From a virus (Duplodnaviria > Caudoviricetes), in the IMG/VR virus record IMGVR_UViG_3300043392_000024, positions 1 to 63,986 of that record: DNA of 63,986 bases; one strand, 5' to 3'. Positions 2,402 to 63,476 of the stretch are shown one piece after another. Every line of letters starts with the position of its first letter. Position 1 is the first letter of the stretch. A program made the position numbers and the translations under genes. Below the pieces are notes generated by a model. That model was not told the DNA's origin and did not search any database. It saw only the letters and a program-made list of their open reading frames with translations.

Positions 2402-2606
2402 AATATCTATTGGTCCCGATTATAAGAATGCGATGAACTATACTCATGGGCAAGAAGTCCTTGATAAGTCTTATCGTATTCATTTGATCACACAAAAGGA
2501 CGATGGTGCGGTTAGTATTTTTATTGAGAAGAATACTGAAATTATTCTTTGGAAATGTATTGGTGCAACCACCCCATTTGTCCTCGAGTATAATATCGAG
2601 TTCTAA
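2388..2606 (+). CDS. Hypothetical protein
   Basis: 72-aa ORF overlapping both neighbours in the operon. Confidence 0.75.
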   Translation: MLIRKISIGPDYKNAMNYTHGQEVLDKSYRIHLITQKDDGAVSIFIEKNTEIILWKCIGATTPFVLEYNIEF

Positions 2607-11627: not shown

Positions 11628-12116
11628 ATGGAAATTTGGAAAGATATACCCGGTTACAAAGGATTGTATCAAGTAAGTAATTTAGGTAGCGTAAAAAGAT
11701 TAAATAAAAACAATGAAAAAATCCTAAAGAACAGGATTCGTGATGGATATTTTGCTGTATCGTTATCTAAGAATGGAATAAGAAAAGATGGAAAAATATC
11801 TAGAATGGTAGCCATTGCTTTTGTTGATAATCCTTTTAATTATAATATCGTTAACCATATAGATGGCAACAAGCAAAATAATAATTATGAAAATTTAGAA
11901 TGGGTTTCAAATAGGGAGAATATACACCATTATCATTTAAGTAAAAATGCTACAACAAAACATTCTTGCATATATGATAAAAAATACGGATTTGTAGTCC
12001 AGGTTAGTTTTGAAGGTAAAAGACATTATTTAGGTTATTATAAAAATTTAAATAATGCTATTGAGGCAAGAAATTGTTTTTTAAAATCAAATAATATTGT
12101 TAATAAGTATATATAG
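11628..12116 (+). CDS. NUMOD4-HNH homing endonuclease with AP2-like C-terminus
   Basis: EIWKDIPGYKGLYQVSNLG (NUMOD4), VNHIDGNKQNN..ENLEW (HNH_3), RHYLGYY...AIEAR (AP2-like). AT-rich relative to flanks. Start chosen at the ATG at 11628. Confidence 0.88.
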   Translation: MEIWKDIPGYKGLYQVSNLGSVKRLNKNNEKILKNRIRDGYFAVSLSKNGIRKDGKISRMVAIAFVDNPFNYNIVNHIDGNKQNNNYENLEWVSNRENIHHYHLSKNATTKHSCIYDKKYGFVVQVSFEGKRHYLGYYKNLNNAIEARNCFLKSNNIVNKYI

Positions 12117-38371: not shown

Positions 38372-38617
38372 TTAATATTCTTTAATTACTTTACAAGTTT
38401 CTTTCTCACTTTGAAATTCAATTAATCGTTCAGCTTGCTCTATTGAATAACAATTCTTGAATTTATGCCACCTTTTTATTAAACCAAAAAATTCCTTTTC
38501 GCAACGCTCTACATGGTATTCATACCTATAAAAAATCTCAGGGATAAAGTCTATTTCATGTTTATGGTTATATTCTAGTTCAGGGAACTTAACTTCTACT
38601 ATTCTATATTTTGCCAT
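38372..38617 (-). CDS. Hypothetical protein
   Basis: 81 aa, starts in a CAACAAGACAATG junction motif. Confidence 0.7.
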   Translation of the reverse strand: MAKYRIVEVKFPELEYNHKHEIDFIPEIFYRYEYHVERCEKEFFGLIKRWHKFKNCYSIEQAERLIEFQSEKETCKVIKEY

Positions 38618-38849
38618 TGTCTTGTTGCATATAAGTTTCTTTGTAATATTGTTCTGGGGTCATCAATTTACCTATAGCCATAGCTACAACAGAATTATGA
38701 AAATCATTTTTTATCTGCTTTTTCTCAACTTCAAGAAGCTCTATGGCTTTTTCTTGGCATAGGACTGCGTGCATTTTGCTTTCGTAGTTTTCACCTAAAG
38801 TATGAATGAACTCAAGCATTTGCATCATTGCTGTTTGTTTATTTTCCAT
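38604..38849 (-). CDS. Small 'KQTA' family accessory protein
   Basis: MENKQTA...EKKQIK...EQYYKETY, similar to 43732..43959 and 46306..46527. Confidence 0.7.
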   Translation of the reverse strand: MENKQTAMMQMLEFIHTLGENYESKMHAVLCQEKAIELLEVEKKQIKNDFHNSVVAMAIGKLMTPEQYYKETYMQQDNGKI

Positions 38850-39174
38850 TGTCTCTTTCTTTTATTTCAGTTTTTGCTGAATGAATTCCGTATGCTACTA
38901 TGTTTTTTAATAATCTCATCTCCATAAATAGTAAGCCGTACTCAATCTGCCTACCTTCTAAAACTGACACTTCTTTAAATACCCATTTATTAGGATTTAT
39001 TACGCCTATATGGTCCTTTATACCCATAGTAACTTCGTACTCTCCATCTCTATATGGCTTAACCGAATATTCAAACTTAATATTCTCGAATTCTTTCTGA
39101 TATTGTAGCGACGATATGATTGATTCAAGATCAGTATTAGCAGGCCGTGTCTTTTCTAGCTTATAATTTTCCAT
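38839..39174 (-). CDS. Hypothetical protein
   Basis: 111 aa, starts in an AAACAACAAGACAATG junction motif. Confidence 0.7.
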   Translation of the reverse strand: MENYKLEKTRPANTDLESIISSLQYQKEFENIKFEYSVKPYRDGEYEVTMGIKDHIGVINPNKWVFKEVSVLEGRQIEYGLLFMEMRLLKNIVAYGIHSAKTEIKERDNGK

Positions 39175-39187
39175 TGTCTTGTTGTTT

Positions 39188-39233
39188 AAGGCTATAACCT
39201 GATTTTTAAATTTAATTTTAAGGGCATAGCCTT
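39188..39233. repeat. 46-bp imperfect inverted-repeat element, copy 1
   Basis: AAGGCTATAACCTGA...TAAGGGCATAGCCTT. Its reverse complement closely matches 46732-46775. Confidence 0.75.
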
Positions 39234-41604
39234 ATAAAAGTTCTAATTGTTCTTTGTATTGAATTAACATCCACTTTCCAGCTGCATCACGACCCTCCTC
39301 AGGGTTATGACCTGTCTTATGCAAAGCATATGTGCGTAGCCACGAGTTGAAGCGTTGCTTGGAAAGCATTCTGAACATCCCATTGTTGTCAATGATAAAC
39401 TTATCGAACGCCTTATCAGGTCTGAACTTCTCATTGAACGGAACCACGGTAGCACCGAACTCAGCGATCCACTCAACGAACTCTGAGTTAGTCTCAGCTC
39501 TGAACTTACGCTCCTTAAGGTTGACAAACTCACAACGGATTAAGCCAGTATGCAAGTAACTCTGAAGCAATTTCATCATGTAGTTATCGAACGCACACCA
39601 ATCATCAGCACCCCAATCATTGAAAAGCAATCGTCCGAACTCATCCTGTGGCGTGAAGTCTTTGGAGTAAAACTGCTTGAACTCCATCTCCCATTTACGT
39701 CTCTCGAAGGAGTTACCCTTACCCTGAATAGCGTAGTTAGTTGTGATGACAACCTTAGGTGACTTATGAAATGGAATCTTTATTGCATCCTTGTTCTTAC
39801 GCTCGATCGTGATACCCTCAGTAATAACCGAGAACAATCGCTCGAAGTCAAAGTTCTTCTTGACATCATCGAACACCAACACCTGGGTGTCAGTAGTTAC
39901 CAACTGATAGGCAAAAGACTTATCGAAGGAGAATGACTTACCATCAATGGTGACCAACTTCTTCATGCGACTAACTCCGTTCATGAACAAGCCCTTACCT
40001 GTACCACCCTCAGGGTTCTCAGATATCACCTCATCGTTAATGATGACAGCCGGGCAATAACCTCCGTTCTTAAATGCGTGCAACAAGAATCCAATTGTTG
40101 ATTCAATCGATGCGATGCGTTTGTCATCGTTGCCACCAATGTTGCGAATGAACTGCTTGTAATCACACTCATCTGAGGGGCAGAAGATGAAGTCACGCTG
40201 AATGACTTGGTCTGCCCAAATGTATCCACCGAGATCCTCATAGTTCAGTAGCGTAGCCGAGTCTTTAGTTACCTTGACCACACCATTGCGATAGTATAGG
40301 TACGCCTCATCCTTGGTGTCCTCAACAAAGTAAATGCTCACCGAGTCAAGCATAGACAAGAAGTCTTCACGGAAGAACCGAGTCTTGTCAGCAAAGTAAT
40401 TGTATACGCTCAGGTCTTGAAAGTTAGTAAGGATATGGTTAAGCACAAAGTCTTTGATGTCATCCTCAGTACACATCTCGATCAAGTTCTGATTGATGCG
40501 AACAAAGATGAAACCTTTGTTGCCCTCAGGAACATACTTGCGATACCCATTCTCTTCCAAGAATCTTTTAAGGTCGTAGTGCACTAATGTAACCACACCC
40601 TTATCGCTCTTAGTCCAGAATATGTTCTTGCTTTCCTCCTCTTCAATCTTTGTTAAGACTGAGTCAATTGTTCCATCCTCAAACCCGGAGGCTTTAAGTT
40701 GAGAACGGACATCCTTTTTTGGCACACCACGATTAAGCTGCACCTTCACCTCGTTGACTCTTTGTGTGTCCTCGAAGTACTTTGTTGCGTGTTGATCCTT
40801 TAACTTGTACGCTGACTCAACAATTGACTTGACCTCTGATTGAGGGAAGTCTTCAGACACAAATCCAGCGAATCTAAACATTGCCTCAGACTTACTTACT
40901 CCGTACTGATTGAACGCAGATGCCAAGATGAAAAGATTGTTGTTCCTTGAGCCACTAACAAAGCCATACTTATTCTCCCACCATTTAGCAAGGCGTGAGA
41001 TAATCTCATCCTCATCATCAATGGGAATGGTAGGTCGCTGATCTTTAGTAACATGATCAATCTCTCCCTCATCTATCTGATTCCAAATATGTGAGTTTAG
41101 ATTAACAAAGATTGTAGGATCGTAAGACTCGTAGCATACACGAGATATATTCTTAGATGTCTTATCAAACTCTTGGCAGTTGTAGTACAACTCAAGGGCA
41201 TTGAAGTATGCCTTATGCTTCTCAGGATTCTCAGGTATCTTAACCAATACCTTAAGTCCATTTCCCGATGGAGAAACAAATACAGAGAATGTATATTGGT
41301 CAGCTGACAATTCCTCCTTCTTAGCCAACATCTCAGCGTGAGAAGGGAAGTTATCGAAGTCCAAACAAATAAGCCCACTATGCTTAAGCAATGAACCATC
41401 ATCACGCTTAGAGAACTTACCGGAGAAACAAATAGCAGGTAAGTCCTGCTTAAGTTTGTTCCGAGTCTCCTTATCTTTTTCCAACCTGATCTTACGAACC
41501 AGGTCTTTCGATTTCCCATCCTTGATGCGAACAAGTATATCAAGCACATCTTTGTGGAAGGGAACCGAAGTCTCTTTTATATTGCGAAAGATTGTAACTT
41601 CCAT
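39232..41604 (-). CDS. Primase-helicase (BT4734/VirE-N-type primase, PriCT-like domain, P-loop helicase, C-terminal winged helix)
   Basis: KQDLPAICFSGKF..HSGLICLDFD..SPSGNGLK, GSRNNNLF, Walker A GGTGKG, Walker B LVFDD, ITTN. Confidence 0.88.
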   Translation of the reverse strand: MEVTIFRNIKETSVPFHKDVLDILVRIKDGKSKDLVRKIRLEKDKETRNKLKQDLPAICFSGKFSKRDDGSLLKHSGLICLDFDNFPSHAEMLAKKEELSADQYTFSVFVSPSGNGLKVLVKIPENPEKHKAYFNALELYYNCQEFDKTSKNISRVCYESYDPTIFVNLNSHIWNQIDEGEIDHVTKDQRPTIPIDDEDEIISRLAKWWENKYGFVSGSRNNNLFILASAFNQYGVSKSEAMFRFAGFVSEDFPQSEVKSIVESAYKLKDQHATKYFEDTQRVNEVKVQLNRGVPKKDVRSQLKASGFEDGTIDSVLTKIEEEESKNIFWTKSDKGVVTLVHYDLKRFLEENGYRKYVPEGNKGFIFVRINQNLIEMCTEDDIKDFVLNHILTNFQDLSVYNYFADKTRFFREDFLSMLDSVSIYFVEDTKDEAYLYYRNGVVKVTKDSATLLNYEDLGGYIWADQVIQRDFIFCPSDECDYKQFIRNIGGNDDKRIASIESTIGFLLHAFKNGGYCPAVIINDEVISENPEGGTGKGLFMNGVSRMKKLVTIDGKSFSFDKSFAYQLVTTDTQVLVFDDVKKNFDFERLFSVITEGITIERKNKDAIKIPFHKSPKVVITTNYAIQGKGNSFERRKWEMEFKQFYSKDFTPQDEFGRLLFNDWGADDWCAFDNYMMKLLQSYLHTGLIRCEFVNLKERKFRAETNSEFVEWIAEFGATVVPFNEKFRPDKAFDKFIIDNNGMFRMLSKQRFNSWLRTYALHKTGHNPEEGRDAAGKWMLIQYKEQLELL

Positions 41605-41834
41605 TGTACTTTTTTAAGATTGATTGTATTATTTATAAAGTTGTACATTTTTGTGCACAAAAAGTGTACAAATTATTTTAAAGTTTGCATAGATAACTAA
41701 TTGATTATTAGTTATTTATATTCTTTAGTGTACAAAATGTACAAAATAAGAGTAATAATTACAAAAAAATAAAAACACACATGGTATTAATTATATATAG
41801 TAAGTAAGTAGCTCCTATTTTGTACATCTTTGTA
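41605..41834. other. Candidate replication origin
   Basis: Non-coding AT-rich region directly upstream of the primase-helicase, with multiple TGTACA repeats, a near-perfect 31-bp palindrome (41641-71) and an IHF-consensus match TAACTAATTGATT (41694-706). Confidence 0.55.
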
Positions 41835-42353
41835 TTAGTCTTCTTTGTTTTCTATGCAGAATAAAATAAATGACTCATGCTTTTCTTTTGTGTCAAGTAA
41901 CTCATTGGTATCATATCTGCGATACATCATTCTTTCTTGATCGTAAACAATGAAGCGGTGAGCTTTCATGTGTTGCTTCTTTGTTATGAATATCAAGTCC
42001 TTATAATGATCCTCATTGTATGACCAATGGTGTTTCTCGAGTCCAGGTTGTGGTGGTTTAATCTTGCCAGACATAGTAGAAGCCCTCTTCTTTTCAGGAT
42101 ATAATAAATGATATCTTAATAAGTTTTTAGGTTTAGCTTTCCCTGTCCCCTCATACAACCTATGGTATTTTTCACGACCTCTCTTCCTTTCCTTTTCAAC
42201 AAACATATTATCTGACGATAATTCAGTATATCGAATCTTAACATCATTCTTAGTGCAATCAATGCACTTATTTAGATGACCATCAAGCATTTGTTTGTGT
42301 TTATAAAAATCTGATAGTTCTTTTTCAATACCACACTTAAAACATTTTTTCAT
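41835..42353 (-). CDS. Zn-finger / HNH-like protein
   Basis: CFKC...CIDC N-terminus and HHWSY..HMKAH. Own TACCTTTG motif on - at 42374-81. Confidence 0.6.
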   Translation of the reverse strand: MKKCFKCGIEKELSDFYKHKQMLDGHLNKCIDCTKNDVKIRYTELSSDNMFVEKERKRGREKYHRLYEGTGKAKPKNLLRYHLLYPEKKRASTMSGKIKPPQPGLEKHHWSYNEDHYKDLIFITKKQHMKAHRFIVYDQERMMYRRYDTNELLDTKEKHESFILFCIENKED

Positions 42354-42408
42354 ATTATTTACTTTTGTTTCTACAAAGGTAACTAAAATAAACTAAAAAA
42401 CTTCCATT

Positions 42409-42726
42409 TTAAAAGGGGAGCTCATCACCCTCCTCAACTACCGGGGCAGCTGCAGGAGGAGGCGTTGGCGTAGATGGTGCTGCCTTTGCAGTAGAGCCAC
42501 CTTCTGATGACCATACTAACTTTCCATTAGCCAAGTAAATTTTAGATGCCTTAGCCTCACGCTCTTCCTGTGTTTGCGACTCGGTAATGGTCAAGATATT
42601 TCCGTATTGATCCGGCTCATCGTTAATAGAGATAGTTACATTTGCGTAAGTACCCTTTTGTCCTTTGACAAATTTGTCTTTAGTGAATTTTGTTACATCA
42701 ATAGATGCTGAGAATAATTGTGCCAT
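42409..42726 (-). CDS. Single-stranded DNA-binding protein (putative)
   Basis: Small beta-rich body, Pro/Ala linker and acidic DELPF tail, within the recombination cluster. Confidence 0.7.
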   Translation of the reverse strand: MAQLFSASIDVTKFTKDKFVKGQKGTYANVTISINDEPDQYGNILTITESQTQEEREAKASKIYLANGKLVWSSEGGSTAKAAPSTPTPPPAAAPVVEEGDELPF

Positions 42727-42738
42727 TTTATTTATTGT

Positions 42739-43011
42739 TTAATTGTTTAACTTTTCTATTTCTTGTTTAACTTTTATGTAATGATCTAGATTGATATTTA
42801 CTCGTGTCATTGAATCTTCATCGTAAGAATATGGGGCTACATTCCAGGATATAAAATCTATTATTTTATCTACTGCTAGAATTGCACATTGTTTAGCTTT
42901 TGCCTTGTCAATTCCTTCGATACCTGTATTTTCAGCAATTCCTAAGTTGTCTTCATACTCAAATAGTGATACCAAATCTTTAGCTTCTTTTATTGGGTTC
43001 ATGTATCTCAT
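42739..43011 (-). CDS. Small 'KEKA..L / KQCA' family accessory protein
   Basis: PIKEAKDLV..AKQCAILAV..VKQEIEKL, similar to 45476..45667 and 45664..45876. Confidence 0.7.
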   Translation of the reverse strand: MRYMNPIKEAKDLVSLFEYEDNLGIAENTGIEGIDKAKAKQCAILAVDKIIDFISWNVAPYSYDEDSMTRVNINLDHYIKVKQEIEKLNN

Positions 43012-43742
43012 AAAGTTTCCGATTTAAAAAACTGAGTGATGTCATCGGTAGCATTTGCTCCGAAGAACTTTTGATAGACCTCGATAGCCTTGTATACTTT
43101 CTCTCGGCCACGATCCATGAACTCATCGCTACATTCAAATAAACCTGTGCGACAGGTATCTTTTTCAACAGCGATGAATACCATAGGCTTACCGAACAAT
43201 TGATTGTATATATATGCTTGACTATCGTAATTATATTTGCGTGCCGAAAAGCGAAAATCATCAAGGTTACCAGTCGTTTTGAGATCAATGAGTAACTCAC
43301 TACCGACTATATCCGACTTGCCTTTCCATTGCACACCACCAATCTCTCCAATAGCAGGCACCTCGTACTCGTTGTCAGCATCACGAATCATATCGTAGAA
43401 GGTGAAGTTACCAAGCAAAGCCTTGACCATTCGATCGATGTCCTCAGCTTCTTTCTGAAGCAATAACATGTCCACACCATGAGATGCGATAGCCTCCTTA
43501 TAAATGTTAGTCGTGCGTGTCGATGCCTCTACTCGTGGGAAGTTAATGATCTTCTCAGGCTCCAGGATCGATGCGTGGAAATAAGACCCAGCAAGCATAG
43601 CCGGAGTCTTATCCTTGTCCTTACCAAACTGCATGGGATTGTATAACAATGCACCGATGTCTGAGTTAGATAAGTAGTTCTTGCCAACACCTGAGTAGTA
43701 CTCGGTGTCGTTGCGTAGGGTTTCTAAAATCTTATTTTCCAT
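43008..43742 (-). CDS. PD-(D/E)xK exonuclease (RecE/exonuclease VIII-like, DUF3799-like)
   Basis: LSNSDI, GSYFHASILEP, KGKSD..IDLKT, YDSQAYIY. Confidence 0.82.
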   Translation of the reverse strand: MENKILETLRNDTEYYSGVGKNYLSNSDIGALLYNPMQFGKDKDKTPAMLAGSYFHASILEPEKIINFPRVEASTRTTNIYKEAIASHGVDMLLLQKEAEDIDRMVKALLGNFTFYDMIRDADNEYEVPAIGEIGGVQWKGKSDIVGSELLIDLKTTGNLDDFRFSARKYNYDSQAYIYNQLFGKPMVFIAVEKDTCRTGLFECSDEFMDRGREKVYKAIEVYQKFFGANATDDITQFFKSETL

Positions 43743-43959
43743 AATTTTCGTTGTAATATTGTTCTGCATCTAATTTGCATTCTATACCCTCAGGGACATT
43801 TGATTGCCAGCATTCTACAAATGCATCTTTTATTTGCTCCTTCTCCATTTGTTTGGCTTGTTCAAATAGCAAATTTTGTTCTTCTGATGTCATATAATCC
43901 CAATAAGTTCTTGTTATTTGGTCATAAAACCATTCTACTGCCGTTTGTTTAGTTTCCAT
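43732..43959 (-). CDS. Small 'KQTA' family accessory protein
   Basis: METKQTAVEW..FEQAKQMEKEQIKDA..AEQYYNENY. Confidence 0.7.
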   Translation of the reverse strand: METKQTAVEWFYDQITRTYWDYMTSEEQNLLFEQAKQMEKEQIKDAFVECWQSNVPEGIECKLDAEQYYNENYGK

Positions 43960-44311
43960 TTTCGTATTGTTCAATTATCATTTTATTTGCAATATTATAT
44001 ACATCAAAGAAGCAATCTAAATCATCTTTAGTTAGTGCAAGTAATCTCGAACCAACACTTCTTAAATCAACGTCAGGTTCTTTGTGATTATAATCTAACA
44101 AAGCAATCACATAACATAATTCTTCACTTTCAAATATTGTAGATTGTATCCTATGGTTATCAGATTGAACAAATCCATCTTCTTCTACATATCCTTTGTT
44201 TAAATAATCATTCTTAAGTCCGTAATATGTATTAGGAAACCATTTTAATATTTCATACCTATCAGTAGTACCACAACTACGACATTGAATACTATTAATC
44301 CTTATGTTCAT
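43949..44311 (-). CDS. Hypothetical protein
   Basis: 120-aa AT-rich ORF. Confidence 0.65.
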   Translation of the reverse strand: MNIRINSIQCRSCGTTDRYEILKWFPNTYYGLKNDYLNKGYVEEDGFVQSDNHRIQSTIFESEELCYVIALLDYNHKEPDVDLRSVGSRLLALTKDDLDCFFDVYNIANKMIIEQYENGN

Positions 44312-44913
44312 TACTTGCGTAGTTTATTGATTGCTTTCTTAGTTGCCTCTGAGATGTCGTACTTAACCGACAACTTTTTGATCACCTCCTCGGTGCTTAG
44401 TCCCATATTGTCAATGACAAAGTTGGACACCTTCTGCCAATTAGCATCGCCTTCTACTAAGGCTACCTTAGATGTAGTCTTAGGCTGTGCCTTAACAGCT
44501 TGCATACTTGAGTCAGACTCCGATGGGAAGTCCTCCTTAGCGTAGATGTTCAACGCCAAGCCATGCAATGCCAACGCCTTCACCGTAGATCGTTGAATAG
44601 TCTTGTTAACCTGCATCGAAGTGATGTTAGCCAAAGGCACAGACTGATTACGCATGTCCATCACAGGTAGGTAGTCAATATGCTCCTGGCCTTGAATCGT
44701 TACACCAACCTTGACCCAAGCAGTTGAGCCATCCGTGAAGTAGTTCATGTGCGTATCACTCTCATAAACTGTGCGAGACATATCAGGAAATAACTTCTTG
44801 CATTCTGCCCAAGCGTGAGCCCAAGATAAGTAGGTTAAGTTACCTCTCTTTTCCGTTTTAGATGAGAGGTTGAGAGCAGACAATTGCTCGAATACTGATT
44901 TTTCTTTTGACAT
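44311..44913 (-). CDS. Sak3/DUF1071 single-strand annealing protein
   Basis: LTYLSWAHAW, YLPVMDMRN, VNKTIQRSTVKALALHGLALNIYAKED. TATCTTTG on - at 44938-45. Confidence 0.85.
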   Translation of the reverse strand: MSKEKSVFEQLSALNLSSKTEKRGNLTYLSWAHAWAECKKLFPDMSRTVYESDTHMNYFTDGSTAWVKVGVTIQGQEHIDYLPVMDMRNQSVPLANITSMQVNKTIQRSTVKALALHGLALNIYAKEDFPSESDSSMQAVKAQPKTTSKVALVEGDANWQKVSNFVIDNMGLSTEEVIKKLSVKYDISEATKKAINKLRK

Positions 44914-44978
44914 AATTGAATTGGATTAAATGTTCGACAAAGATAAAATTAATTTTGATATACACAACAAAGTTCTTT

Positions 44979-45479
44979 TTAGTGTGCAAGAAGTTCTTTT
45001 AATAGTACAACTTTGTATTCAAGTTCAACTAAAGAACCGGCATTTGGTATGATGATATCCGACATACTCCATATGTCAACATCGAAAGATTCTCGAGGTT
45101 CCAATGGTTTCATTGGGTCGAACACACCAATCACCAAATCAAAGATGCCATCATGAGTGCAAGCCTCGAGCTCACGATTGCTACGCATCCCTGTGTAGAT
45201 GTCGTTGTTGTCCATGATGTACTTAGCCAATTGACCTGGATAGTCTTGATTGTACTCACAAATCATATCGAACCACTCAGCTCTGTGGTTCACCCGATCC
45301 TCGAAGCATTCCTCAGGAGTCTTGTACCCATACTTGTCCTTCAATGCATCGTACAGGAATAAGCGTGAGGCAGCTTGCGAACTGCTCTCACTCTTGTATC
45401 CAAAATGCTTATTCATAAATTCTGCGACCGTGTCCTTACCATGACGTGCGTGGCCGATGATACATATTTTCTTTTTCAT
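44979..45479 (-). CDS. Deoxynucleoside monophosphate kinase-like protein
   Basis: N-terminal P-loop IIGHARHGKDT, and GMR...E. Confidence 0.7.
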   Translation of the reverse strand: MKKKICIIGHARHGKDTVAEFMNKHFGYKSESSSQAASRLFLYDALKDKYGYKTPEECFEDRVNHRAEWFDMICEYNQDYPGQLAKYIMDNNDIYTGMRSNRELEACTHDGIFDLVIGVFDPMKPLEPRESFDVDIWSMSDIIIPNAGSLVELEYKVVLLKELLAH

Positions 45480-45667
45480 AGCTTCTCTATTTCTTGTTTA
45501 ACTTCATCTAAATATTTATTGTAACCATCTGTATTCAATGGGTTTTCTCTTGCAAATCCAACCGCAATTAATGCACATTGTTTAGCTTCATAAATTCCTG
45601 TGTAATTTGGTACCATAAATTGGTAATACTTTCCAACTAATTCTTCTGCTTTTTCTTTCTGTGTCAT
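45476..45667 (-). CDS. Small 'KEKA..L / KQCA' family accessory protein
   Basis: MTQKEKAEELV..AKQCALIAV..EVKQEIEKL. Confidence 0.7.
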   Translation of the reverse strand: MTQKEKAEELVGKYYQFMVPNYTGIYEAKQCALIAVGFARENPLNTDGYNKYLDEVKQEIEKL

Positions 45668-45876
45668 ATATTAAATAATTCTTGTTCAACTTGTTCTAAA
45701 TAAGGTTGCGATTCTACATCGCACCACTCAATCATTTTTCTTACTGTACAATGGACGCATAACTTTACTGCATATTTTCTGGAAAATTCATCGTAAATCT
45801 CGTCCATTAATAATGAATTATAATGATCGATTAATTCGTGTGCCATTTCTTTTGGCGTTATATCTTTTGTCCCCAT
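45664..45876 (-). CDS. Small accessory protein, divergent member of the same family
   Basis: TPKEMAHELI..VKLCV..EQVEQEL. Confidence 0.65.
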   Translation of the reverse strand: MGTKDITPKEMAHELIDHYNSLLMDEIYDEFSRKYAVKLCVHCTVRKMIEWCDVESQPYLEQVEQELFNI

Positions 45877-46322
45877 CTGTTGATTCCTTTTTTATTGTAT
45901 TTATAATAATAAACATACAGGTTATAAAACCCATTCTGATTTCTGCGAAGGATTAACTTGTCCTTACACGCATCGCATTGGTAGCTTACCGACTGCGTGT
46001 TCTTAGATCGCATGAAAACTTTGTCAGCATCACACTCATCGTTCTTATGCCCACACTTAGGGCAGTTCAATCGATGCTCAAGGAAGCCTGACCTTACTCG
46101 CTCATCGCCATACTCAGGATCGGTTGGCTTAGCCTTGTAAACCTTAACGAATCCTTTCCGGGTTCTTCTGAATACTAATCTTCTCTCGCATCCAGCACAT
46201 TTGCCGTTCGCTCGCTCTTGCTCATCTTCCGTTCGATCAAAAATATTAATCGCATAGTCGAGGTCAGATTCGTGGCCACAATGTGGGCAGTCAAGCGTGT
46301 TCTTTCTAATAGTGTATCCCAT
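45858..46322 (-). CDS. Tandem zinc-ribbon protein
   Basis: Two repeats of CPxCGH...CxxC..LxxRR...GF. Likely start MGYTIRK at 46322. Confidence 0.7.
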   Translation of the reverse strand: MGYTIRKNTLDCPHCGHESDLDYAINIFDRTEDEQERANGKCAGCERRLVFRRTRKGFVKVYKAKPTDPEYGDERVRSGFLEHRLNCPKCGHKNDECDADKVFMRSKNTQSVSYQCDACKDKLILRRNQNGFYNLYVYYYKYNKKGINRWGQKI

Positions 46323-46527
46323 TGATAATTTCTTTAAATTTTTTGTACAAATATTCTGCGGACTCATTCCAACCTTTCTTGTATTGTTTGGCCATTTGAT
46401 CTTGCTCCATTTCTTTGGCTTGTTTGAAAGATTCTTCATACATATTTCTTAATTGTTCGGAATCAAAACTAACAATACCCAATAGGTGTATGTATAGTCT
46501 ATCTACTGCCGTTTGTTTATTTGCCAT
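46306..46527 (-). CDS. Small 'KQTA' family accessory protein
   Basis: MANKQTAVD..FKQAKEMEQDQM. Confidence 0.7.
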   Translation of the reverse strand: MANKQTAVDRLYIHLLGIVSFDSEQLRNMYEESFKQAKEMEQDQMAKQYKKGWNESAEYLYKKFKEIINGIHY

Positions 46528-46714
46528 TGTCTTGTTGTTTAAACTGAGAGTTCATAAGGTTTCGCATTCTCTTCTTGTAGGCATTCTTCCTCATAGATTT
46601 TTCTTGTTGTTTTGTGAATGGATGACTACTAAAAAAGTTTCCGCACGAGGAGATATATCCTCTAAACTCCTTCATATCTGAGCCATCAGATGATTTACCT
46701 GTGTATAGTGCCAT
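46517..46714 (-). CDS. Hypothetical protein
   Basis: 65 aa, flanked on both sides by the junction motif and ending in KQQDNGK. Confidence 0.65.
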   Translation of the reverse strand: MALYTGKSSDGSDMKEFRGYISSCGNFFSSHPFTKQQEKSMRKNAYKKRMRNLMNSQFKQQDNGK

Positions 46715-46731
46715 TGTCTTGTTGTTTAATA

Positions 46732-46775
46732 AGGTTATACCCTTAAAGTTTTTTAAAAAAATCAGGATATAACCT
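46732..46775. repeat. 44-bp imperfect inverted-repeat element, copy 2, bounded by an 11-bp direct repeat
   Basis: AGGTTATACCCTTA...TCAGGATATAACCT between two TGTTGTTTAAT copies (46720-30 and 46775-85). Confidence 0.75.
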
Positions 46776-46992
46776 GTTGTTTAATGTGATTAATTGTCCA
46801 CTCCACACCAAACTTAAATATTGCATCAAATTCAAATGAATAGCTTGAGTCTTCTATTTTATCGTCTATTTCAAATTCACTTGGTAGTTCGATGGGAGTG
46901 TAATCCCCTAATAAAAAATCTGTAGTTAGCCAAGGAGAAATCCTAGCTTCAATCATTGCGTGCTTTACTTGTTCTTCTGTATATAATTTCAT
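46762..46992 (-). CDS. Hypothetical protein
   Basis: MKLYTEEQV..TPIELPS. Its stop codon is supplied by the IR element. Confidence 0.65.
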   Translation of the reverse strand: MKLYTEEQVKHAMIEARISPWLTTDFLLGDYTPIELPSEFEIDDKIEDSSYSFEFDAIFKFGVEWTINHIKQQVIS

Positions 46993-47393
46993 TTGTCTTG
47001 TTGTTTACAGATTGAAATAAGTTTATCTATACAAGCATTCTCTGCTTCTTCGTAGGTATAATAACCTAGTGGACTTTCATCAACTACCCATTCTTCTTGT
47101 TCATTAATAATTATCTCCCAAGAATATCTATATCCTTCTTTATCAGATGCAGTTATTTTTAGCGGGAATACACTAGTGTGAAGTATATTGTGCTTCTCCC
47201 TAAACCATCTAAATACTTGTTGTTTAAGTGGTGCAAGAGTGTGATATGTAGGATTGAATAATACACCATCATCTGTACTAAACCCAATATATAGTTTACC
47301 AAAATCTTCATCATACCCAGCCATACATTTCTCATCAAAGCCAAGGTACATTAGTGCTACTGCTTGATCAAAGCTTACAAATTCTTCGCTCAT
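46989..47393 (-). CDS. Hypothetical protein
   Basis: 134 aa, APLKQQVFRWFREKH...TYEEAENAC, ending in KQQDK. Confidence 0.7.
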   Translation of the reverse strand: MSEEFVSFDQAVALMYLGFDEKCMAGYDEDFGKLYIGFSTDDGVLFNPTYHTLAPLKQQVFRWFREKHNILHTSVFPLKITASDKEGYRYSWEIIINEQEEWVVDESPLGYYTYEEAENACIDKLISICKQQDK

Positions 47394-48974: not shown

Positions 48975-49655
48975 TTACAACACCTTGCTCCATTGGTTTG
49001 CGATCGCTTTAGCCATTCCCTGAAATGTTTTGCTTCTCAAAGTTCTACGCTCCGCAGGAGTTTTAGCCTGACTTAAAGCCTTGTAATACCACATCGGCTG
49101 TCGCTTTACTTTCCCACTCTTGCCATCAACCCATTCAAAAAATTCTCCCTTATCTACAATGTCAGTAGGAGTGATCAATGGTAGATTTTTAAGCCACAAA
49201 CAAGTAGACTTATTTGCTGAATCACCAAACATCCAAGGCTGAATGATCTGATCGGGTTTACGCCATGCAGTTGATAATGATCCAATAGGATTCTCAATTG
49301 CGATCCGAGGAATATTCGACTCATAAAGTTTTATAACAAACTCAATCGCTGACTGCCGATCACACTCACGATTTGGATATCTTGGGTGAGGTCTACGCTC
49401 ATTACTTGGCAAGTGCTTATCATCGGGATGGTAGTACCATGCAGCCCCACTTGAGGACAAAAATGTGCAAGGTGGGTGAGCGATCATAAGATCCCAGTTC
49501 TGATCAATCACACCAAACACATCGCCTTGTATGTGCCACTCGGGGTGACCTCCCGAGCAAGGCAAGATGTCGCAACTGAATGCCTCATGACCTAAGGCCC
49601 TAAACTCTTTTGTGATCGCTTGACTTTCCTCGCAAGCTATTAATACTTTTGCCAT
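48975..49655 (-). CDS. Compact DNA cytosine-C5 methyltransferase-like protein
   Basis: VLIACEES (motif I variant), DLMIAHPPCT (motif IV PC), IENP (motif VI), RSKTFQGMA. Confidence 0.8.
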   Translation of the reverse strand: MAKVLIACEESQAITKEFRALGHEAFSCDILPCSGGHPEWHIQGDVFGVIDQNWDLMIAHPPCTFLSSSGAAWYYHPDDKHLPSNERRPHPRYPNRECDRQSAIEFVIKLYESNIPRIAIENPIGSLSTAWRKPDQIIQPWMFGDSANKSTCLWLKNLPLITPTDIVDKGEFFEWVDGKSGKVKRQPMWYYKALSQAKTPAERRTLRSKTFQGMAKAIANQWSKVL

Positions 49656-49668
49656 TTTAAATTTCGTT

Positions 49669-50010
49669 TTAATATCCGTAAAAAAATCCTTGTTCATCGC
49701 ATCGCTTAGGCTCTTCATTTCGCCAATCTATTGACCGATCTTCATCAATGTTAGGCCAAATAATATCAGATCTATTTTCAGTAGAGTATGCTAGTTCAAT
49801 ACCCGCACTTCGATCTGATCCAAGGCCGTTCATTTCAGCAAGCAACTCATAAAAGTCTTTGTTATCAAACTTTCCGTAGCCCTCATATAAAGGCTCATGC
49901 CATACGTTCCCTTGATTATCCTTTAGGTATACATTCAAAGCCCCTCGAACTGAATGTACATTTGATACGCTCTTATTGGTATCGTTAGTTATGAATGAAT
50001 GAAATCCCAT
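49669..50010 (-). CDS. Hypothetical early protein
   Basis: MGFHSFITNDT..YEGYGKF..DFYELLAEMN..QGFFY. Confidence 0.75.
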   Translation of the reverse strand: MGFHSFITNDTNKSVSNVHSVRGALNVYLKDNQGNVWHEPLYEGYGKFDNKDFYELLAEMNGLGSDRSAGIELAYSTENRSDIIWPNIDEDRSIDWRNEEPKRCDEQGFFYGY

Positions 50011-50027
50011 TTTAATTTTCGTTTAAG

Positions 50028-50537
50028 TTATTTTGCTAGTAAAGTTTTTAAATGCTTTTTGAATATATACATATCAAACACTTCATTTACATCATTAAAA
50101 TAACATCCATTAAAATACACTTTGAATCCTTTTAATTTTAAATATGATCGCCCTAATATGGTTTCATAATCACTTCGCATTTCATACTTCCAAACTAATG
50201 CATTGCCATCATGATAGCCATTCCCTATACAACTTCCGTTTTGATGTCTTATTTGAAAATAGTTATCATGATCTTTGTACGGCAAAAGTTCAAGTCCAAT
50301 TTCACGAAGCATATCGCCGTACTTCTTATTATCTTCTGCCATTTGCAAGTTCATCGCCTCTCTGATCGCAATATTACTTGCACCTATTTCTCGAATGCGA
50401 ATTTCATCTTTCTCCACCTCATCACACAAATGAGCAAAGATATTATCAGCTGATCCGATTGCATGATCATTAATTTTCGCAAACTCATTTACTAAGTTTG
50501 AAATAATTTCGTTTTGTTTTGGGGTTAAATTTTCCAT
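50028..50537 (-). CDS. Hypothetical early protein
   Basis: 169-aa ORF. Confidence 0.7.
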   Translation of the reverse strand: MENLTPKQNEIISNLVNEFAKINDHAIGSADNIFAHLCDEVEKDEIRIREIGASNIAIREAMNLQMAEDNKKYGDMLREIGLELLPYKDHDNYFQIRHQNGSCIGNGYHDGNALVWKYEMRSDYETILGRSYLKLKGFKVYFNGCYFNDVNEVFDMYIFKKHLKTLLAK

Positions 50538-50538
50538 T

Positions 50539-50736
50539 CTAATTTTCGTTTAAATTTTGTGTCGTAAATATTTCTATAAAATCAGTGTAAAATTCATCGG
50601 CATTAAATACCTCAATGTAGTTACACAATACATCGTTTTTCTCATCATATTGATTATCTGCATTATATCGAATAATCACCTCAGCATTCGGGTTTGGATG
50701 CTGATTTAAAATTTGAATTAAGTCTTTGATCGTCAT
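50539..50736 (-). CDS. Hypothetical early protein
   Basis: MTIKDLIQIL...PNAEV pattern. Confidence 0.7.
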   Translation of the reverse strand: MTIKDLIQILNQHPNPNAEVIIRYNADNQYDEKNDVLCNYIEVFNADEFYTDFIEIFTTQNLNEN

Positions 50737-55374: not shown

Positions 55375-56916
55375 ATGATAGTTAAAAATGTAGAGTCTGG
55401 CGAAATTGCTAGACAAAAATTAATTAAAGGTGTTGATACGGTTGCAAATGCTGTAGGATCTACTCTTGGTGCCAGAGGTCGCACAGTTCTGATGGAATCG
55501 GAGAACCATGTTGGTGGCATTATTGTCACAAAAGATGGCGTTTCGGTATCGAAAGGTGTAAATCTTATGGATCCTACCGAGAACCTAGCGGTGATGATCA
55601 TGCGTGAGGCATCAGAGAAGACTGCTAACTCAGCAGGCGATGGGACAACGACAAGTATGGTGCTGGCACAGGCCATCATCCATGAGGCCATGGACCAAAT
55701 TGAGCCGAGCGACAACTTAACGCAAGTATTGCGTGACATCCAAGAGGCGAGCACAGAGGTGCTGACAAAGTTAGATGAGATGTCGGTCGAGATTACTGAT
55801 GACAAGCTTCAGTCTGTTGCTACAATCTCTGCTAATGGGGACACGGACACAGGGTCAATTATCGCTGATGCGTACAGTAAGGTGGGGCTGACAGGTGTGG
55901 TGACAGTAGAGCCATCCAAGGATGCGTTGACATACTCGGAGATTATTAGTGGGATGAAGGTGGACAGAGGGTACACGAGCAAGTATTTTGTGACTGACCA
56001 TAAGAAGCAAGAGTGTGTGCTAGATGACCCATATATTTTGGTGACTGACCAACCTATTAGCCACATTAATGACATCTTCCCAATACTTGAGTATATACTT
56101 GAGGGCAACAAGTCATTATTAATCATTGGCGAGTTGGAGGAGAATGCTCTGAACACGCTGAACGCCAACAAGATTAAGGCTAAGTTAAAGGTGTGCACAA
56201 TTATGCCTCCACAGTTTGGCTACAAGAAGCATCAGTTGATGCAGGACATAGCGACATCGGTTGGGGCTAAGTATTTTAGTGAGCAAACAGGGGACAACTT
56301 GGCGATGGTGAGCATCGATGACCTGGGCCGTGCCAAGAAAGTAATCAGCGGTCGGTTCAACACACTTATCCGTGAGCCGGGTGGCTTGGTGGACGAGCGA
56401 GTGGCTGAGCTGCAAGAGCAATTAAACGTGGAGACGAGTGCGATCGAGAAAGAATTCTTAAAAGAGCGGATCGCTAACTTGGGCGGTGGCGTGGCTGTCA
56501 TTTATGTTGGTGCTCAGTCTGACATTGAGCAGAAGGAGAAGAAGGACAGAGTAGACGATGCGGTGTGTGCTGTGAGAGCTGCATTGGAGGAGGGTATCCT
56601 GCCAGGTGGTGGGGTGGCACTAAAAGATGTTGCTACTTCAACAAATATAAAAAATAAAGGGGCAGATATATTAATGCGTGCTTTGATGGCACCTATGATC
56701 AAGATTATTCAGAATGCAGGTGGGGCAAAAGAAAATTTGGACGTATGCTCTAAAGAAGGCGTTGGGATCAATGTGGTGAACATGGCCACGGCTAACATGA
56801 TGGACATCGGGATCATCGACCCAACGAAGGTGACAAAAGAGGCTGTGAGAAATGCAGTCAGCGTAGCAACTACGTTGCTGTCAACAGATACGGTCATCAC
56901 TAATATTCGGGCATGA
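55375..56916 (+). CDS. groEL: Phage chaperonin GroEL
   Basis: TLGARGRTV, TKDGVSV, AGDGTTT, ERIANLGGGVAV, RVDDA, GGGVAL, GIIDPTKV. TAAGTTTG at 55347-54. Confidence 0.95.
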   Translation: MIVKNVESGEIARQKLIKGVDTVANAVGSTLGARGRTVLMESENHVGGIIVTKDGVSVSKGVNLMDPTENLAVMIMREASEKTANSAGDGTTTSMVLAQAIIHEAMDQIEPSDNLTQVLRDIQEASTEVLTKLDEMSVEITDDKLQSVATISANGDTDTGSIIADAYSKVGLTGVVTVEPSKDALTYSEIISGMKVDRGYTSKYFVTDHKKQECVLDDPYILVTDQPISHINDIFPILEYILEGNKSLLIIGELEENALNTLNANKIKAKLKVCTIMPPQFGYKKHQLMQDIATSVGAKYFSEQTGDNLAMVSIDDLGRAKKVISGRFNTLIREPGGLVDERVAELQEQLNVETSAIEKEFLKERIANLGGGVAVIYVGAQSDIEQKEKKDRVDDAVCAVRAALEEGILPGGGVALKDVATSTNIKNKGADILMRALMAPMIKIIQNAGGAKENLDVCSKEGVGINVVNMATANMMDIGIIDPTKVTKEAVRNAVSVATTLLSTDTVITNIRA

Positions 56917-57123: not shown

Positions 57124-57381
57124 ATGCGAGTAATAGGAAATAATATTTTAATCGTCCCTTTTGAAGAAGAGACAAAATCAAAAGGGGGCTTATTGATGTC
57201 AGCATCTGACACAAAAGAGCTAAGATACAAAAAAGCAACTGTGGTTGCTGTTGGTGATCTTGCCACGAGTGTTAAGCCTGGTAACTTTATCTACTTTGAT
57301 AAGGCAGCAGGGCATAGCATCCGTGTAAATGAGGACATCTACACGGTGATACGCTTGCAGGATGTGGTAGTTGTGCTATAA
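57124..57381 (+). CDS. groES: Co-chaperonin GroES
   Basis: EEETKSKGGLLM mobile loop, ATVVAVG, VKPG, IRLQDV. Confidence 0.9.
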   Translation: MRVIGNNILIVPFEEETKSKGGLLMSASDTKELRYKKATVVAVGDLATSVKPGNFIYFDKAAGHSIRVNEDIYTVIRLQDVVVVL

Positions 57382-60504: not shown

Positions 60505-60950
60505 GAAATCTAATATTTTTACTATTAATTTTTGCAGTATCATGCAAGCCGTTACAACCTGTAACGGTTTATCGAGATGTTGTCAAAGTAGACACAGTTC
60601 GTGATTACAAAGTAATTACAAAATTAAACGCTGTTCATGACACGCTAACAATCGACAATCCTTGCGATTCTTCTGGCATTTTAACGAGTTTCTATAGCCG
60701 GATAAGGATACCACAAGGAAAGGTTGTAGTTCGTTCAGTACAGGGCAAGATTCAGGCCACAGTAGACATCGATTCTATCGAGTCCGTGTATCGTGATAAG
60801 TATAAATCTCAACTTGCTACTGATACGTATAAAACTGAGAAAGTTATACGTACAAATGAGATACCTAAGTGGGTAATTTGGTTTATGGCTATTAGTGGTG
60901 TTTTGTCATTTTTATATGTTAGAGAGAAAGTTAGTATTTTTGTAAAATAA
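60501..60950 (+). CDS. Putative unimolecular spanin
   Basis: N-terminal lipobox (FAVSC) plus a C-terminal TM helix, directly after the endolysin. Confidence 0.65.
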   Translation: MRNLIFLLLIFAVSCKPLQPVTVYRDVVKVDTVRDYKVITKLNAVHDTLTIDNPCDSSGILTSFYSRIRIPQGKVVVRSVQGKIQATVDIDSIESVYRDKYKSQLATDTYKTEKVIRTNEIPKWVIWFMAISGVLSFLYVREKVSIFVK

Positions 60951-60968
60951 CTAGCAAACAAAAAGCCG

Positions 60969-63476
60969 ATGGCAAGAATTAGTACATATCCAAGTGACAA
61001 TAATGTTATAGGAGCAGATAAGTGGATTGGTTCCGATGCAAATAATAACAATCAAACCAAGAACTTTACAGCCGATGCAGTAGCAGCTTATTTTAATAAG
61101 GCTAGTGCTATCGATACAGGTCAATTCTCTTGGAATTTCGTTGCCTATTCAAGTACTGTTACTCAGTATGACAAAACATTTTCATTAGTTGGGTATACTA
61201 ATACAAGTATTGGTGTTAACCAGTTAGAAGGTATCTTAAAAGTATCTTTCTTAACTCTTGCAAATACAACTCCAGGCACATTTATTGCAGAGCAATGGCT
61301 AAATAAAATTATCCTTGTTCATATCCCTAATAACCCATCTTCTTACGGATTATATAGAATTACTAATATTTCTTTAGTTGGTGATTTTTATTATTTAACT
61401 ACTGACTTACAAGAGGCATCTACAGGAACTATTTTAGCAAACACTCCTGTTTCTTTTGGTCTTTTCGAAGGTGTATCAGGTACTAACGGAACATCCGGAA
61501 GCTCAGGAACGTCAGGGTCAAGCGGAATTAATGGTACTATGGGTACTTCAGGATCGTCAGGTACTACAGGTACTTCAGGATCGTCAGGCACCACAGGTAC
61601 TTCTGGAAGCTCAGGTACTACAGGTACATCAGGTACTACAGGTACTTCAGGATACTCTGGTGATAAATATCGTGGCACATCTACTACTTCATTTACATTA
61701 GGAAATGCAGGAACCATTACAACCCAAGTAGGGCTATCATATACTCCAGCACAATCTATTATCATTGTTTACAATGCTAATAATTTCCAAGAGTGCGAGG
61801 TTATAAGTTACGACTCTGGTAATGGATTACTAACATTTGCTGCACCAACACGAACTGTTGGTTCGGGTACATATACTTCTTGGACAATTAACTTGGATGG
61901 TGCAAGTGGTGGCGATGGATCTTCAGGTACTTCAGGTACATCAGGGGCAAATGGTACAAGTGGAATAAATGGTACGAGTGGTAGCTCAGGATTTAGCGGA
62001 ACTAGTGGTATAAGTGGAACCTCAGGTACGACAGGTACTTCGGGATCTAGCGGTATTAGTGGTACATCAGGAACAAGTGGGGTAGATGGTACATCCGGTA
62101 CAACAGGAACATCAGGATTTAATGGATCAAGTGGAACTACAGGTACATCAGGTACTAGTGGGTTAACAGGTACATCAGGTACATCAGGACAGAATGGTAT
62201 TTCTGCTGGTCGTACTTACTACTTTAATCAGTCGCAGTCTTCTAGCATTTCTCCATATAAAATTTTAGCAGAACAGCCTTCCGGTGCTATTCAGCAAGTT
62301 GTTACTACTAGCTTGTCTGGTAGTCAATCTGGTGCGTTGGTAAGCAGTTTTATTACTGAGGAGTTAGGGTTTCCTATTATCCCAAGTGGTATACAAAGGT
62401 TTAATCTACATTATTTAAAACCTGCATCTAACGATAACATTGAAGTATATGTTACGATACAACTGGCTGATTCTTCAGGAACGCCTATTGGACCTGTTAT
62501 ATCATCTGGCGTTGACTTAATTGGATGGGTAGATGCTTCGACTCCTGTAGACGTACCTATCGACATTGTGCTTCCAACAACAGGTATTGATCCTACATAT
62601 AGGATGATTGCTAAATTGTATTTAACAAATTTAGACAGCACATCACATAATGTTAGTTTTTACACAGAAGGTACTTCTTATTATTCTTTTGTTCTTACAT
62701 CGGTAGGTGCAGTTGGTGGAACTTCAGGAACCTCAGGTACAAGTGGTGTATCTGGTACATCTGGTGTTAGTGGGACTTCGGGCGTTAGTGGAACAAGTGG
62801 GATTGATGGAACAAGTGGTATAAATGGTGCCAATGGCACTAGTGGTGTCGATGGAACATCTGGAGTAAATGGTACGAGTGGCGTTAATGGTGCAAATGGT
62901 ACCTCAGGAGTAGATGGTACTAGTGGCGTAAGTGGTACGTCAGGAGTTTCAGGTACATCAGGTGTAAATGGAGCGAACGGAACATCAGGTGTAAGTGGTA
63001 CTTCAGGTACTAGCGGAGCAGCTGGAGCAAGTGGTACATCAGGAGTTAGTGGAACAAGTGGTGTGTCAGGTACAAGTGGTACTTCGGGTCCATCGTACAT
63101 CTCACTTTACTCAACTACTGTGACGATTAATAGTGCCGGTGGTTTTGCAGGTAACTACGGAACACTTATCCCAATTAACACGCTTACATATAACGGTGTT
63201 TATATTATCAGAATTAGATACGTATCATCTTATTCTCCATATTACATTAGTACTGTAATTACATATTGCCCTGCTAGTGGTAATGCTTCGGATCAGCAGA
63301 CAGGATTTGAGTTTTATTCATTAACATCTGCTGGTAATGGTACCGACTCTTACATGGGATTCTTAGGTAAGTCGGCAGGAAGTGGTGGTGTAGGTGGTAT
63401 ATATGCTAAATTCCCTTATGGTAACGTTAATGCCGGAGGAGGTACAGCATATGTCGATTGTTATAGAATATATTAA
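60969..63476 (+). CDS. Fibre protein with three collagen-like (Gly-Thr-Ser)n blocks
   Basis: Gly at every third residue in blocks at about 61470-61660, 61910-62200 and 62715-63090, separated by globular domains. TATTTTTG at 60935-42. Confidence 0.75.
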   Translation: MARISTYPSDNNVIGADKWIGSDANNNNQTKNFTADAVAAYFNKASAIDTGQFSWNFVAYSSTVTQYDKTFSLVGYTNTSIGVNQLEGILKVSFLTLANTTPGTFIAEQWLNKIILVHIPNNPSSYGLYRITNISLVGDFYYLTTDLQEASTGTILANTPVSFGLFEGVSGTNGTSGSSGTSGSSGINGTMGTSGSSGTTGTSGSSGTTGTSGSSGTTGTSGTTGTSGYSGDKYRGTSTTSFTLGNAGTITTQVGLSYTPAQSIIIVYNANNFQECEVISYDSGNGLLTFAAPTRTVGSGTYTSWTINLDGASGGDGSSGTSGTSGANGTSGINGTSGSSGFSGTSGISGTSGTTGTSGSSGISGTSGTSGVDGTSGTTGTSGFNGSSGTTGTSGTSGLTGTSGTSGQNGISAGRTYYFNQSQSSSISPYKILAEQPSGAIQQVVTTSLSGSQSGALVSSFITEELGFPIIPSGIQRFNLHYLKPASNDNIEVYVTIQLADSSGTPIGPVISSGVDLIGWVDASTPVDVPIDIVLPTTGIDPTYRMIAKLYLTNLDSTSHNVSFYTEGTSYYSFVLTSVGAVGGTSGTSGTSGVSGTSGVSGTSGVSGTSGIDGTSGINGANGTSGVDGTSGVNGTSGVNGANGTSGVDGTSGVSGTSGVSGTSGVNGANGTSGVSGTSGTSGAAGASGTSGVSGTSGVSGTSGTSGPSYISLYSTTVTINSAGGFAGNYGTLIPINTLTYNGVYIIRIRYVSSYSPYYISTVITYCPASGNASDQQTGFEFYSLTSAGNGTDSYMGFLGKSAGSGGVGGIYAKFPYGNVNAGGGTAYVDCYRIY

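Follow-up and report, generated by a model that had tools for sequence, protein, structure and literature searches.

Why should unrelated small genes of one phage begin with the same letters? The question is raised by a 16-letter motif, AAACAACAAGACAATG, that recurs at gene starts in the non-structural region of a Caudoviricetes virus, IMG/VR record IMGVR_UViG_3300043392_000024, the whole of which (63,986 bp; hereafter the window) was analyzed. A first-pass annotation had taken the motif for a portable translation start that doubles as a micro-homology junction, through which a phage-encoded recombination system would swap gene cassettes without an integrase, and had named a plain translation-initiation sequence as the fallback. 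The fallback is the better supported role. We consider the motif to be most likely a start-associated sequence, i.e., a Shine-Dalgarno-independent, A/C-rich, unstructured leader for translation initiation by the ribosomes of a Bacteroidota host. The phages that carry it at many small accessory genes are uncultured and come from fresh water.

Three exact copies of the motif lie on the - strand of the window, whereas none occurred in 100 shuffled sequences (expected number, 0). With up to 3 mismatches, 9 sites were found against 1.66 expected (5 in the richest shuffle), 7 of them on the - strand between 38615 and 47006. Three exact and three near copies each supply the ATG of an open reading frame (ORF) of 65-111 codons. 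These six precede five unrelated gene families and are confined to 38.6-47.0 kb, in a single orientation (Table 1). The annotation had assigned one motif to the starts at 38617, 39174, 46527 and 46714; the last three carry exact copies, whereas the copy at 38617 differs at two positions. Its variants at 38849 and 46992 were both recovered, and the motif, which it had not noticed in core genes, is absent from every core-gene start in the window, the closest being 4 mismatches away. The two + strand look-alikes with up to 3 mismatches lie at 27952, inside a long ORF, and at 60956, ahead of an 835-codon tail-fibre-like gene.

Four of the six copies overlap the final codons of the ORF before them, and the other two (39174 and 46714) are intergenic. 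Most of the peptide tails that had been read from the motif do come from it (MQQDNGKI, KQQDNGK, KQQDK and ERDNGK; Table 1). The exception is KQQVIS, the end of ORF 46762-46992, which arises from a partial look-alike, AAACAACAGG, inside that gene. The true copy, at 46714, lies 47 nucleotides (nt) further downstream; the look-alike is conserved in the homologue of the ORF in one relative (L004). Both intergenic copies sit behind predicted hairpins. The first hairpin ends on the first letter of its motif copy, and the second, which starts within the final codons of ORF 46762-46992, stops 4 nt short of its copy. The arms of the two are too dissimilar to define a family, and the motif itself was unpaired in all 4 folds computed.

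A megablast of the region against named phage records returned zero matches; the relatives come only from IMG/VR. A primase search of that database yielded 77 loci, 24 from a closer clade (81-96% primase identity) and 53 more distant. Exact copies were present in 9 of the 24 closer loci and in none of the 53 distant ones. Within the clade they always lie on the gene strand and at an ORF start, with 0 to 7 consecutive copies per locus (7 in L010). Compared with the closest relatives, core genes keep 70-89% nucleotide identity and nearly all of the small-gene stretches between them are replaced; L006 lacks the entire window stretch 38375-39230 with its three motif genes. Across the relatives the motif precedes dozens of gene families.

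An exact-match scan of IMG/VR gave an estimated ~340 stretches, of which 130 sites in 120 loci were examined; 103 of the 130 sites start an ORF (at least 40 codons, or running off the locus). Contigs with the motif range from 4 to 195 kb. Bacterial genomes hold an estimated ~790 stretches, which by a rough estimate is about chance level. In 80 of these loci, whose organisms were classed from record titles (40 further loci were left out), sites fell at plausible gene starts in 17 of 38 Bacteroidota cases versus 5 of 42 others. A literature search for the motif string found no paper, and a broader word search gave nothing relevant among the 10 papers listed out of 3,717.

The argument for a translation signal begins with the host. 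The window primase matches only phages of Flavobacterium, Nonlabens, Polaribacter, Cellulophaga and similar genera, at up to 56% identity, so the host very probably belongs to the Bacteroidota. In Flavobacterium johnsoniae, ribosomes are described as not using Shine-Dalgarno pairing, and adenines at positions -3, -6, -12 and -13 as positive determinants of initiation (Baez et al. 2019, PMC6847099). The 91 called starts of the phage genome are enriched for A at the same positions (frequencies of 0.67 at both -13 and -12, 0.62 at -6 and 0.56 at -3), and the motif has A at all four. Its letters include neither GGAG nor a purine-rich core. Leaders of the (CAA)n type, e.g., the omega sequence of tobacco mosaic virus, boost translation in bacteria.

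Constraint on the motif acts at the level of nucleotides. We collected 80 homologues of the 134-amino-acid (134-aa) gene at 46989-47393 by means of internal peptides, so that the set was unbiased for the motif. The Asp codon within the motif was GAC in 18 cases and GAT in none, whereas an Asp ten codons upstream was GAT in 24 and GAC in 2; where Asn replaced the motif Asp, its codon was AAC in 5 of 5 cases. This bias against the local codon preference argues for a nucleotide-level rather than a protein-level signal. Four loci keep the form AAACAATAAGACA-ATG; here the upstream ORF stops at a codon within the motif, yet the remaining letters are retained.

Nor does the motif need an upstream gene: 41 of the 103 ORF-start sites in IMG/VR and 7 of 36 sites in the clade are intergenic. 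Ten of the 41 carry a -7 box of the published consensus TAnnTTTG (PMC6847099) no more than 30 nt upstream, and behind such a box the motif makes up most of a short leader. A related arrangement occurs in the window at 60926-60971 (+), where the start of the tail-fibre-like gene is preceded by TATTTTTG, which fits the Bacteroidetes -7 box pattern, and by the leader AAACAAAAAGCCG-ATG, a 3-mismatch relative of the motif. Inspection by eye of the ~40-45 nt upstream of the six window copies revealed no TAnnTTTG box.

Where the motif overlaps an upstream ORF, it is read in one phase, AAA CAA CAA GAC AA- (KQQDN), at 29 of 29 clade sites. At IMG/VR ORF starts this phase outnumbers the other phase 60:1, and at sites that are not ORF starts 18:6. 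Independent origins in each gene would not be expected to yield a constant phase; the copies are thus probably identical by descent and have been handed between unrelated genes. The tail may have originated in the 134-aa family, whose own conserved C terminus (ACIDKLIEIAKQQDN) includes KQQ; its distant members finish with KNK or KQK. At 26 of the 29 overlapping sites the upstream stop lies so that it ends 4-14 nt beyond the A of the ATG; 4 of the 29 use ATGA, and at the other 25 the stop ends 8-29 nt past that A.

Taken as a leader, the motif would work as follows. In packed arrays of small accessory genes it would take up the final five codons (K-Q-Q-D-N) of the gene before, and the next gene could be started by a ribosome terminating 4-14 nt past the ATG or by a newly loaded one. 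With no preceding ORF the motif alone would act as the leader. Recombination at gene borders would hand copies from gene to gene, and the motif would in this manner come to mark cassette borders. From these patterns we infer that the motif raises initiation; translation of neighbouring genes may be coupled, and the genes started from it may be early genes.

Several observations weigh against a translation leader as the complete account. The start context of the 91 called starts is almost uninformative at -10, -7, -4 and -2, so that the exact C, C, G and C of the motif at these positions are unexplained by the known determinants; they could stem from recent shared ancestry or from a factor that binds there specifically. 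A zinc-type gene with the N terminus MPDI has the motif in L009, L010 and L021 and lacks it in the window (start at 38117) and in L014. Because the motif is missing from many close relatives (15 of the 24 clade loci are without an exact copy), it must be dispensable. Finally, overlaps of 8-11 nt exceed the -4 and -1 overlaps for which termination-reinitiation has been demonstrated (PMC6728339, PMC10666635).

Table 1. Motif copies, associated hairpins and context genes in the window (aa, amino acids).
Feature	Position	Strand	Description
Motif variant ATGCAACAAGACAATG	38615..38630	-	2 mismatches, last 13 letters identical; ATG of 81-aa ORF 38372-38617; overlaps tail MQQDNGKI-stop of ORF 38604-38849
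Motif variant AAAGAAAGAGACAATG	38847..38862	-	3 mismatches; ATG of 81-aa ORF 38604-38849 (N terminus MENKQTA); overlaps tail ERDNGK-stop of ORF 38839-39174
Motif, exact	39172..39187	-	Intergenic, 57 nt past primase stop; ATG 39174-39172 of 111-aa ORF 38839-39174
Motif, exact	46525..46540	-	ATG of 73-aa ORF 46306-46527 (MANKQTA); overlaps tail KQQDNGK-stop of ORF 46517-46714
Motif, exact	46712..46727	-	Intergenic, 47 nt past stop of ORF 46762-46992; ATG of 65-aa ORF 46517-46714
Motif variant AAACAACAAGACAAATG	46990..47006	-	17 nt, one extra A; ATG of 76-aa ORF 46762-46992; overlaps tail KQQDK-stop (ATGA) of 134-aa ORF 46989-47393
134-aa accessory gene	46989..47393	-	Motif inside the family's conserved C terminus (ACIDKLIEIAKQQDN); used as unbiased junction probe
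Predicted hairpin	39187..39234	-	10-bp outer stem (TAAGGCTAT../..ATAGCCTTA), AT-rich loop; -14.2 kcal/mol, z -2.54
Predicted hairpin	46732..46775	-	12-bp stem, 20-nt AT-rich loop; -14.9 kcal/mol, z -3.42; 0/200 shuffles as stable
Primase-helicase, BT4734/PriCT/DUF5906	39232-41604		Neighbour of motif genes; Pfam/PHROG scans
PD-(D/E)XK exonuclease	43008-43769	-	DUF3799, 9.6e-21; phrog_412 'exonuclease VIII', 2.4e-34
Sak-type (Rad52-like) single-strand annealing protein	44311-44913	-	PF06378, 1.6e-32; phrog_659 'Sak-like', 3.1e-53; context gene

The alternative that survives best is that the motif is mainly a micro-homology linker whose copies are recombined by the phage's own enzymes, thereby shuffling cassettes as an integrase-free analogue of the PeSL cassettes of T4-type phages. 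The enzymes are at hand, as the window encodes a single-strand annealing protein and a PD-(D/E)XK exonuclease, its presumed partner. Sak, Sak3 and Sak4 are distinct recombinase families, and the annealing protein matches Sak (Table 1) instead of Sak3, the label given to it in the first pass. A common tail in one phase on unrelated upstream families, runs of up to seven motif junctions, and accessory families that occupy different variable regions in different genomes would also be expected of a linker.

Moreover, genes are exchanged at the motif. In L009, L010, L021 and L022, four different genes follow family 20, each joined exactly at the motif, and among clade relatives the 134-aa gene is likewise followed by three. 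L021 differs from L009 by an extra mini-gene of 121 nt, ATG to ATG, between two copies of the motif, where L009 has a single copy; the flank upstream is 97% identical between the two. Some gain and loss in relatives is thus bounded by the motif, as the annotation had anticipated, and other events are unrelated to it. Contigs from four public runs, matched to the window at 90% likeness, gave a similar picture. Those of co-occurring relatives lose their match at motif edges (46729, 46541, 46516/46518, 46989 and 38850), but the same contigs also lose it at ordinary gene borders (43010, 45667, 42732 and 47687). In run X1, possibly the source sample, we found the joints 46541-46712, 46541-46876 and 46732-47017, whose short side of 21 letters is undecodable and may belong to other organisms.

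In a separate rearrangement, at 13965-14300 of L010 (identical in L011), a mini-gene of 40 codons is fused in frame to the next gene, of the MDNIYWRT family, by the loss of ~10 nt directly after ...AAACAACAAGACA, which removed the ATG. The mini-gene is free-standing in L021 and L022.

What counts against a linker is that exchange of the same precision takes place without it. The 3′ end of the primase gene (window stop at 39232) lacks the motif in 20 of 21 loci and is joined within 0-4 nt (ATGA, TAATG or TAAnATG) to genes of 12 family labels, only one of them via the motif; counts by label are approximate because label 0 lumps MxNKQTA and MPDI-zinc genes even under stricter clustering. Genes are thus replaced very precisely here, at joints that share almost no sequence. 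Moreover, motif variants go with the upstream gene, which indicates that many crossovers fell at the ATG edge rather than inside the motif. The motif also occurs as a plain leader behind promoters.

Further comparisons gave no excess of exchange at the motif. The two controls are coarse, being based on family clustering and ungapped flank scores, and could miss a moderate rate advantage. Among junction pairs that share one flank, the other flank was discordant in 0.77-0.81 at accessory junctions with the motif versus 0.79-0.81 at those without. Of the homology breakpoints lying no more than 25 nt from a gene start, 1.9-5.3% were at motif junctions, against a baseline of 3.6%, motif junctions being 30 of 826 gene starts. 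The cleanest control is partner diversity among the 134-aa homologues, 73 of which have a next gene, from 37 clusters in all. Of these, 45 loci carry the motif (up to 2 mismatches); their downstream genes form 23 clusters, which rarefaction to 28 loci brings to 18.0, and the 28 loci that lack it show 19. A first breakpoint measure counted junctions with any end of a BLAST high-scoring segment pair within 25 nt and gave fewer hits for the motif (11 of 30 versus 501 of 747). It was dropped as biased, since the shortness and rarity of motif genes leave few blocks that reach 150 nt.

The best reading of these results is that the motif marks points of exchange without being needed for it, and that swaps are no commoner there than at other borders; exchange occurs at all borders in these genomes, motif or none. 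The annotation had pointed to indel breakpoints away from the motif as the finding that would leave it only a strong initiation sequence. Such breakpoints were found at the primase 3′ end, and the breakpoint share and partner diversity agree with them, even though part of the gain and loss is bounded by the motif. Of the idea of a portable start and junction, what stands is that the motif supplies the start codon and joins many unrelated upstream and downstream genes in one phase; that it is what lets cassettes swap is unsupported. A role mainly as a linker is therefore unlikely in our estimate. Less likely still is its bolder form, in which the motif would be a self-propagating linker for many Bacteroidota phage lineages, spread by annealing-type cassette exchange and with KQQDN fixed by crossovers within copies. 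If true, this would amount to cassette exchange without an integrase, in which the linker also served each cassette as its translation start.

The conserved C-10, C-7, G-4 and C-2, at positions to which the general start context is indifferent, bring up another alternative, an mRNA operator. The phage T4 protein RegA binds start regions, and a phage or host RNA-binding regulator or nuclease similar to T4 RegA/RegB might jointly control the accessory genes through a motif that spans the start codon and is clustered in their arrays. However, none of the 81 scanned proteins matches a PHROG translational repressor family (E ≤ 1e-5), and the motif is missing from close relatives whose core genes are the same. 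A factor of one phage lineage is also hard to reconcile with a motif found on contigs of 4-195 kb and behind host-type promoters. We regard an operator as improbable.

The constant phase, without exception in the clade and nearly so in IMG/VR, could alternatively mean that the conserved feature is a peptide, e.g., a C-terminal KQQDN tag for degradation or interaction, and that the DNA motif is only its coding sequence. This is very improbable given the intergenic sites in both the clade and IMG/VR, the variant that retains its letters beyond an internal stop, and the use of GAC against local codon preference. That the motif is a by-product of duplicated MxNKQTA paralogues taking along their own 5′ regions is the least likely reading of all: the genes starting at 38849, 43959 and 46527 are indeed paralogous with related 5′ ends, and the family often carries the motif in relatives, but the five unrelated families in the window and dozens in relatives contradict it.

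The closest described system for a start-associated leader is the set of start-associated sequences (SAS) of cluster K mycobacteriophages, 5′-GGGATAGGAGCCC, which are reported to have a Shine-Dalgarno-like AGGAG core, able to pair with 16S rRNA, 3-7 bp from the start, to follow an upstream inverted repeat at about half of the sites (ESAS), and to have a proposed role in translation (Pope et al. 2011, PMC3203893). As described there, SAS resemble the motif in being short, asymmetric and in one orientation, in lying at starts (mostly ATG) in a non-structural region, and in preceding differing gene families while being conserved across related phages. A subset of SAS follows inverted repeats; here 2 of the 6 copies follow a predicted hairpin, with arms too dissimilar to define a family. 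Unlike SAS, the motif has no Shine-Dalgarno core, abuts the ATG, belongs to phages of a phylum whose ribosomes ignore Shine-Dalgarno sequences, and in most cases also encodes, in a fixed phase, the tail of the ORF before it.

For the model of the first-pass annotation, the closest match is provided by the PeSL (promoter-early stem-loop) cassettes (Arbiol et al. 2010, PMC2839356). In the published description these are likewise short conserved expression signals between small non-essential genes of variable regions, and where close relatives differ by an insertion, deletion or replacement, the element forms its border; here some differences are so bounded (L009/L021), and motif junctions are not over-represented among breakpoints. 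However, PeSL are promoters, of the strong early kind, plus terminators and thus transcriptional, whereas the motif is a start-codon leader without a promoter box beside the window copies. Recombination between PeSL copies and mini-circles were demonstrated in that work, whereas the motif is known here from contigs and showed no excess exchange in two controls. An integron-type array has an integrase and structured attC/attI recombination sites; here no integrase or recombinase family was found among the 81 (PHROG) or 25 proteins scanned, and the motif is unpaired.

Other precedents share single features with the motif. The 'Kozak-like' upstream-adenine determinants of Bacteroidia agree with it in A at -3, -6, -12 and -13, an A-rich stretch from -14 to -11, low structure and independence from Shine-Dalgarno pairing; they are presented as a loose statistical preference, whereas the motif is an exact, reused 13-16-mer that includes conserved C and G residues not required by that preference (PMC6847099). 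The boundary sequences proposed for lambdoid phages would also be short shared sequences at mosaic joints of phages that encode their own recombination proteins. In the debate that sets them against illegitimate recombination (PMC3029335), the present genomes resemble those cases in that most joints are without shared sequence, and for this reason the motif is not a general cause of mosaicism. Termination-reinitiation pairs are co-directed genes whose stop and start overlap, but by 4 or 1 nt in the pairs described (Huber et al. 2019, PMC6728339; 2023, PMC10666635), whereas motif junctions mostly overlap by 8-14 nt and some have no upstream ORF.

For the question of how Bacteroidia ribosomes choose and load start codons, the motif offers a natural leader repeated letter for letter at more than 100 gene starts, with conserved letters beyond the known adenine rule that are testable with existing Flavobacterium reporters. 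Expression constructs for Bacteroidota may use it as a part, and it helps in calling the starts of very small phage genes. As for boundary sequences versus illegitimate recombination, it is a case of a shared boundary sequence that exists and is passed around with no measurable excess of exchange.

As an IMG/VR virus record the window is complete, with direct terminal repeats and 37% G+C. Structural genes occupy the + strand from ~2 to 31.5 kb; the - strand from ~31.5 to 54 kb holds replication and recombination genes and many small genes, and the motif copies lie within this block. The small genes at the motif had no match in Pfam (E ≤ 0.01) or in PHROGs (E ≤ 1e-5). Three small paralogues (N terminus MxNKQTA, C terminus ..YY.E.Y) lie in three separate variable regions (38604-38849, 43732-43959 and 46306-46527, -). 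Theirs is the commonest accessory family of the clade, and in public-run contigs its paralogues are joined to one another.

Profile scans detected two HNH endonucleases in the window. A high-depth contig of run X2 joins 37314 to 37975 and so omits the HNH gene at 37406-37963 (-), which is retained in a lower-depth contig of the same run; this looks like a presence/absence polymorphism of a free-standing homing-type endonuclease. The second HNH gene, at 11628-12116, lies amid the structural genes. PHROG matches also identified a GroEL-like chaperonin (55375-56916) and two GroES-like proteins (57124-57381 and 2606-3190), all on the + strand. Lastly, a second start-linked motif, TTAAAC[CG]AAAATTA[AG]AATG (AAACGAAAATTAAA-ATG), occurs within 49655-50736 (-) at the starts 50736, 50537, 50010 and 49655 and, besides single weak matches, recurs only in the closest relatives, L004 and L006.

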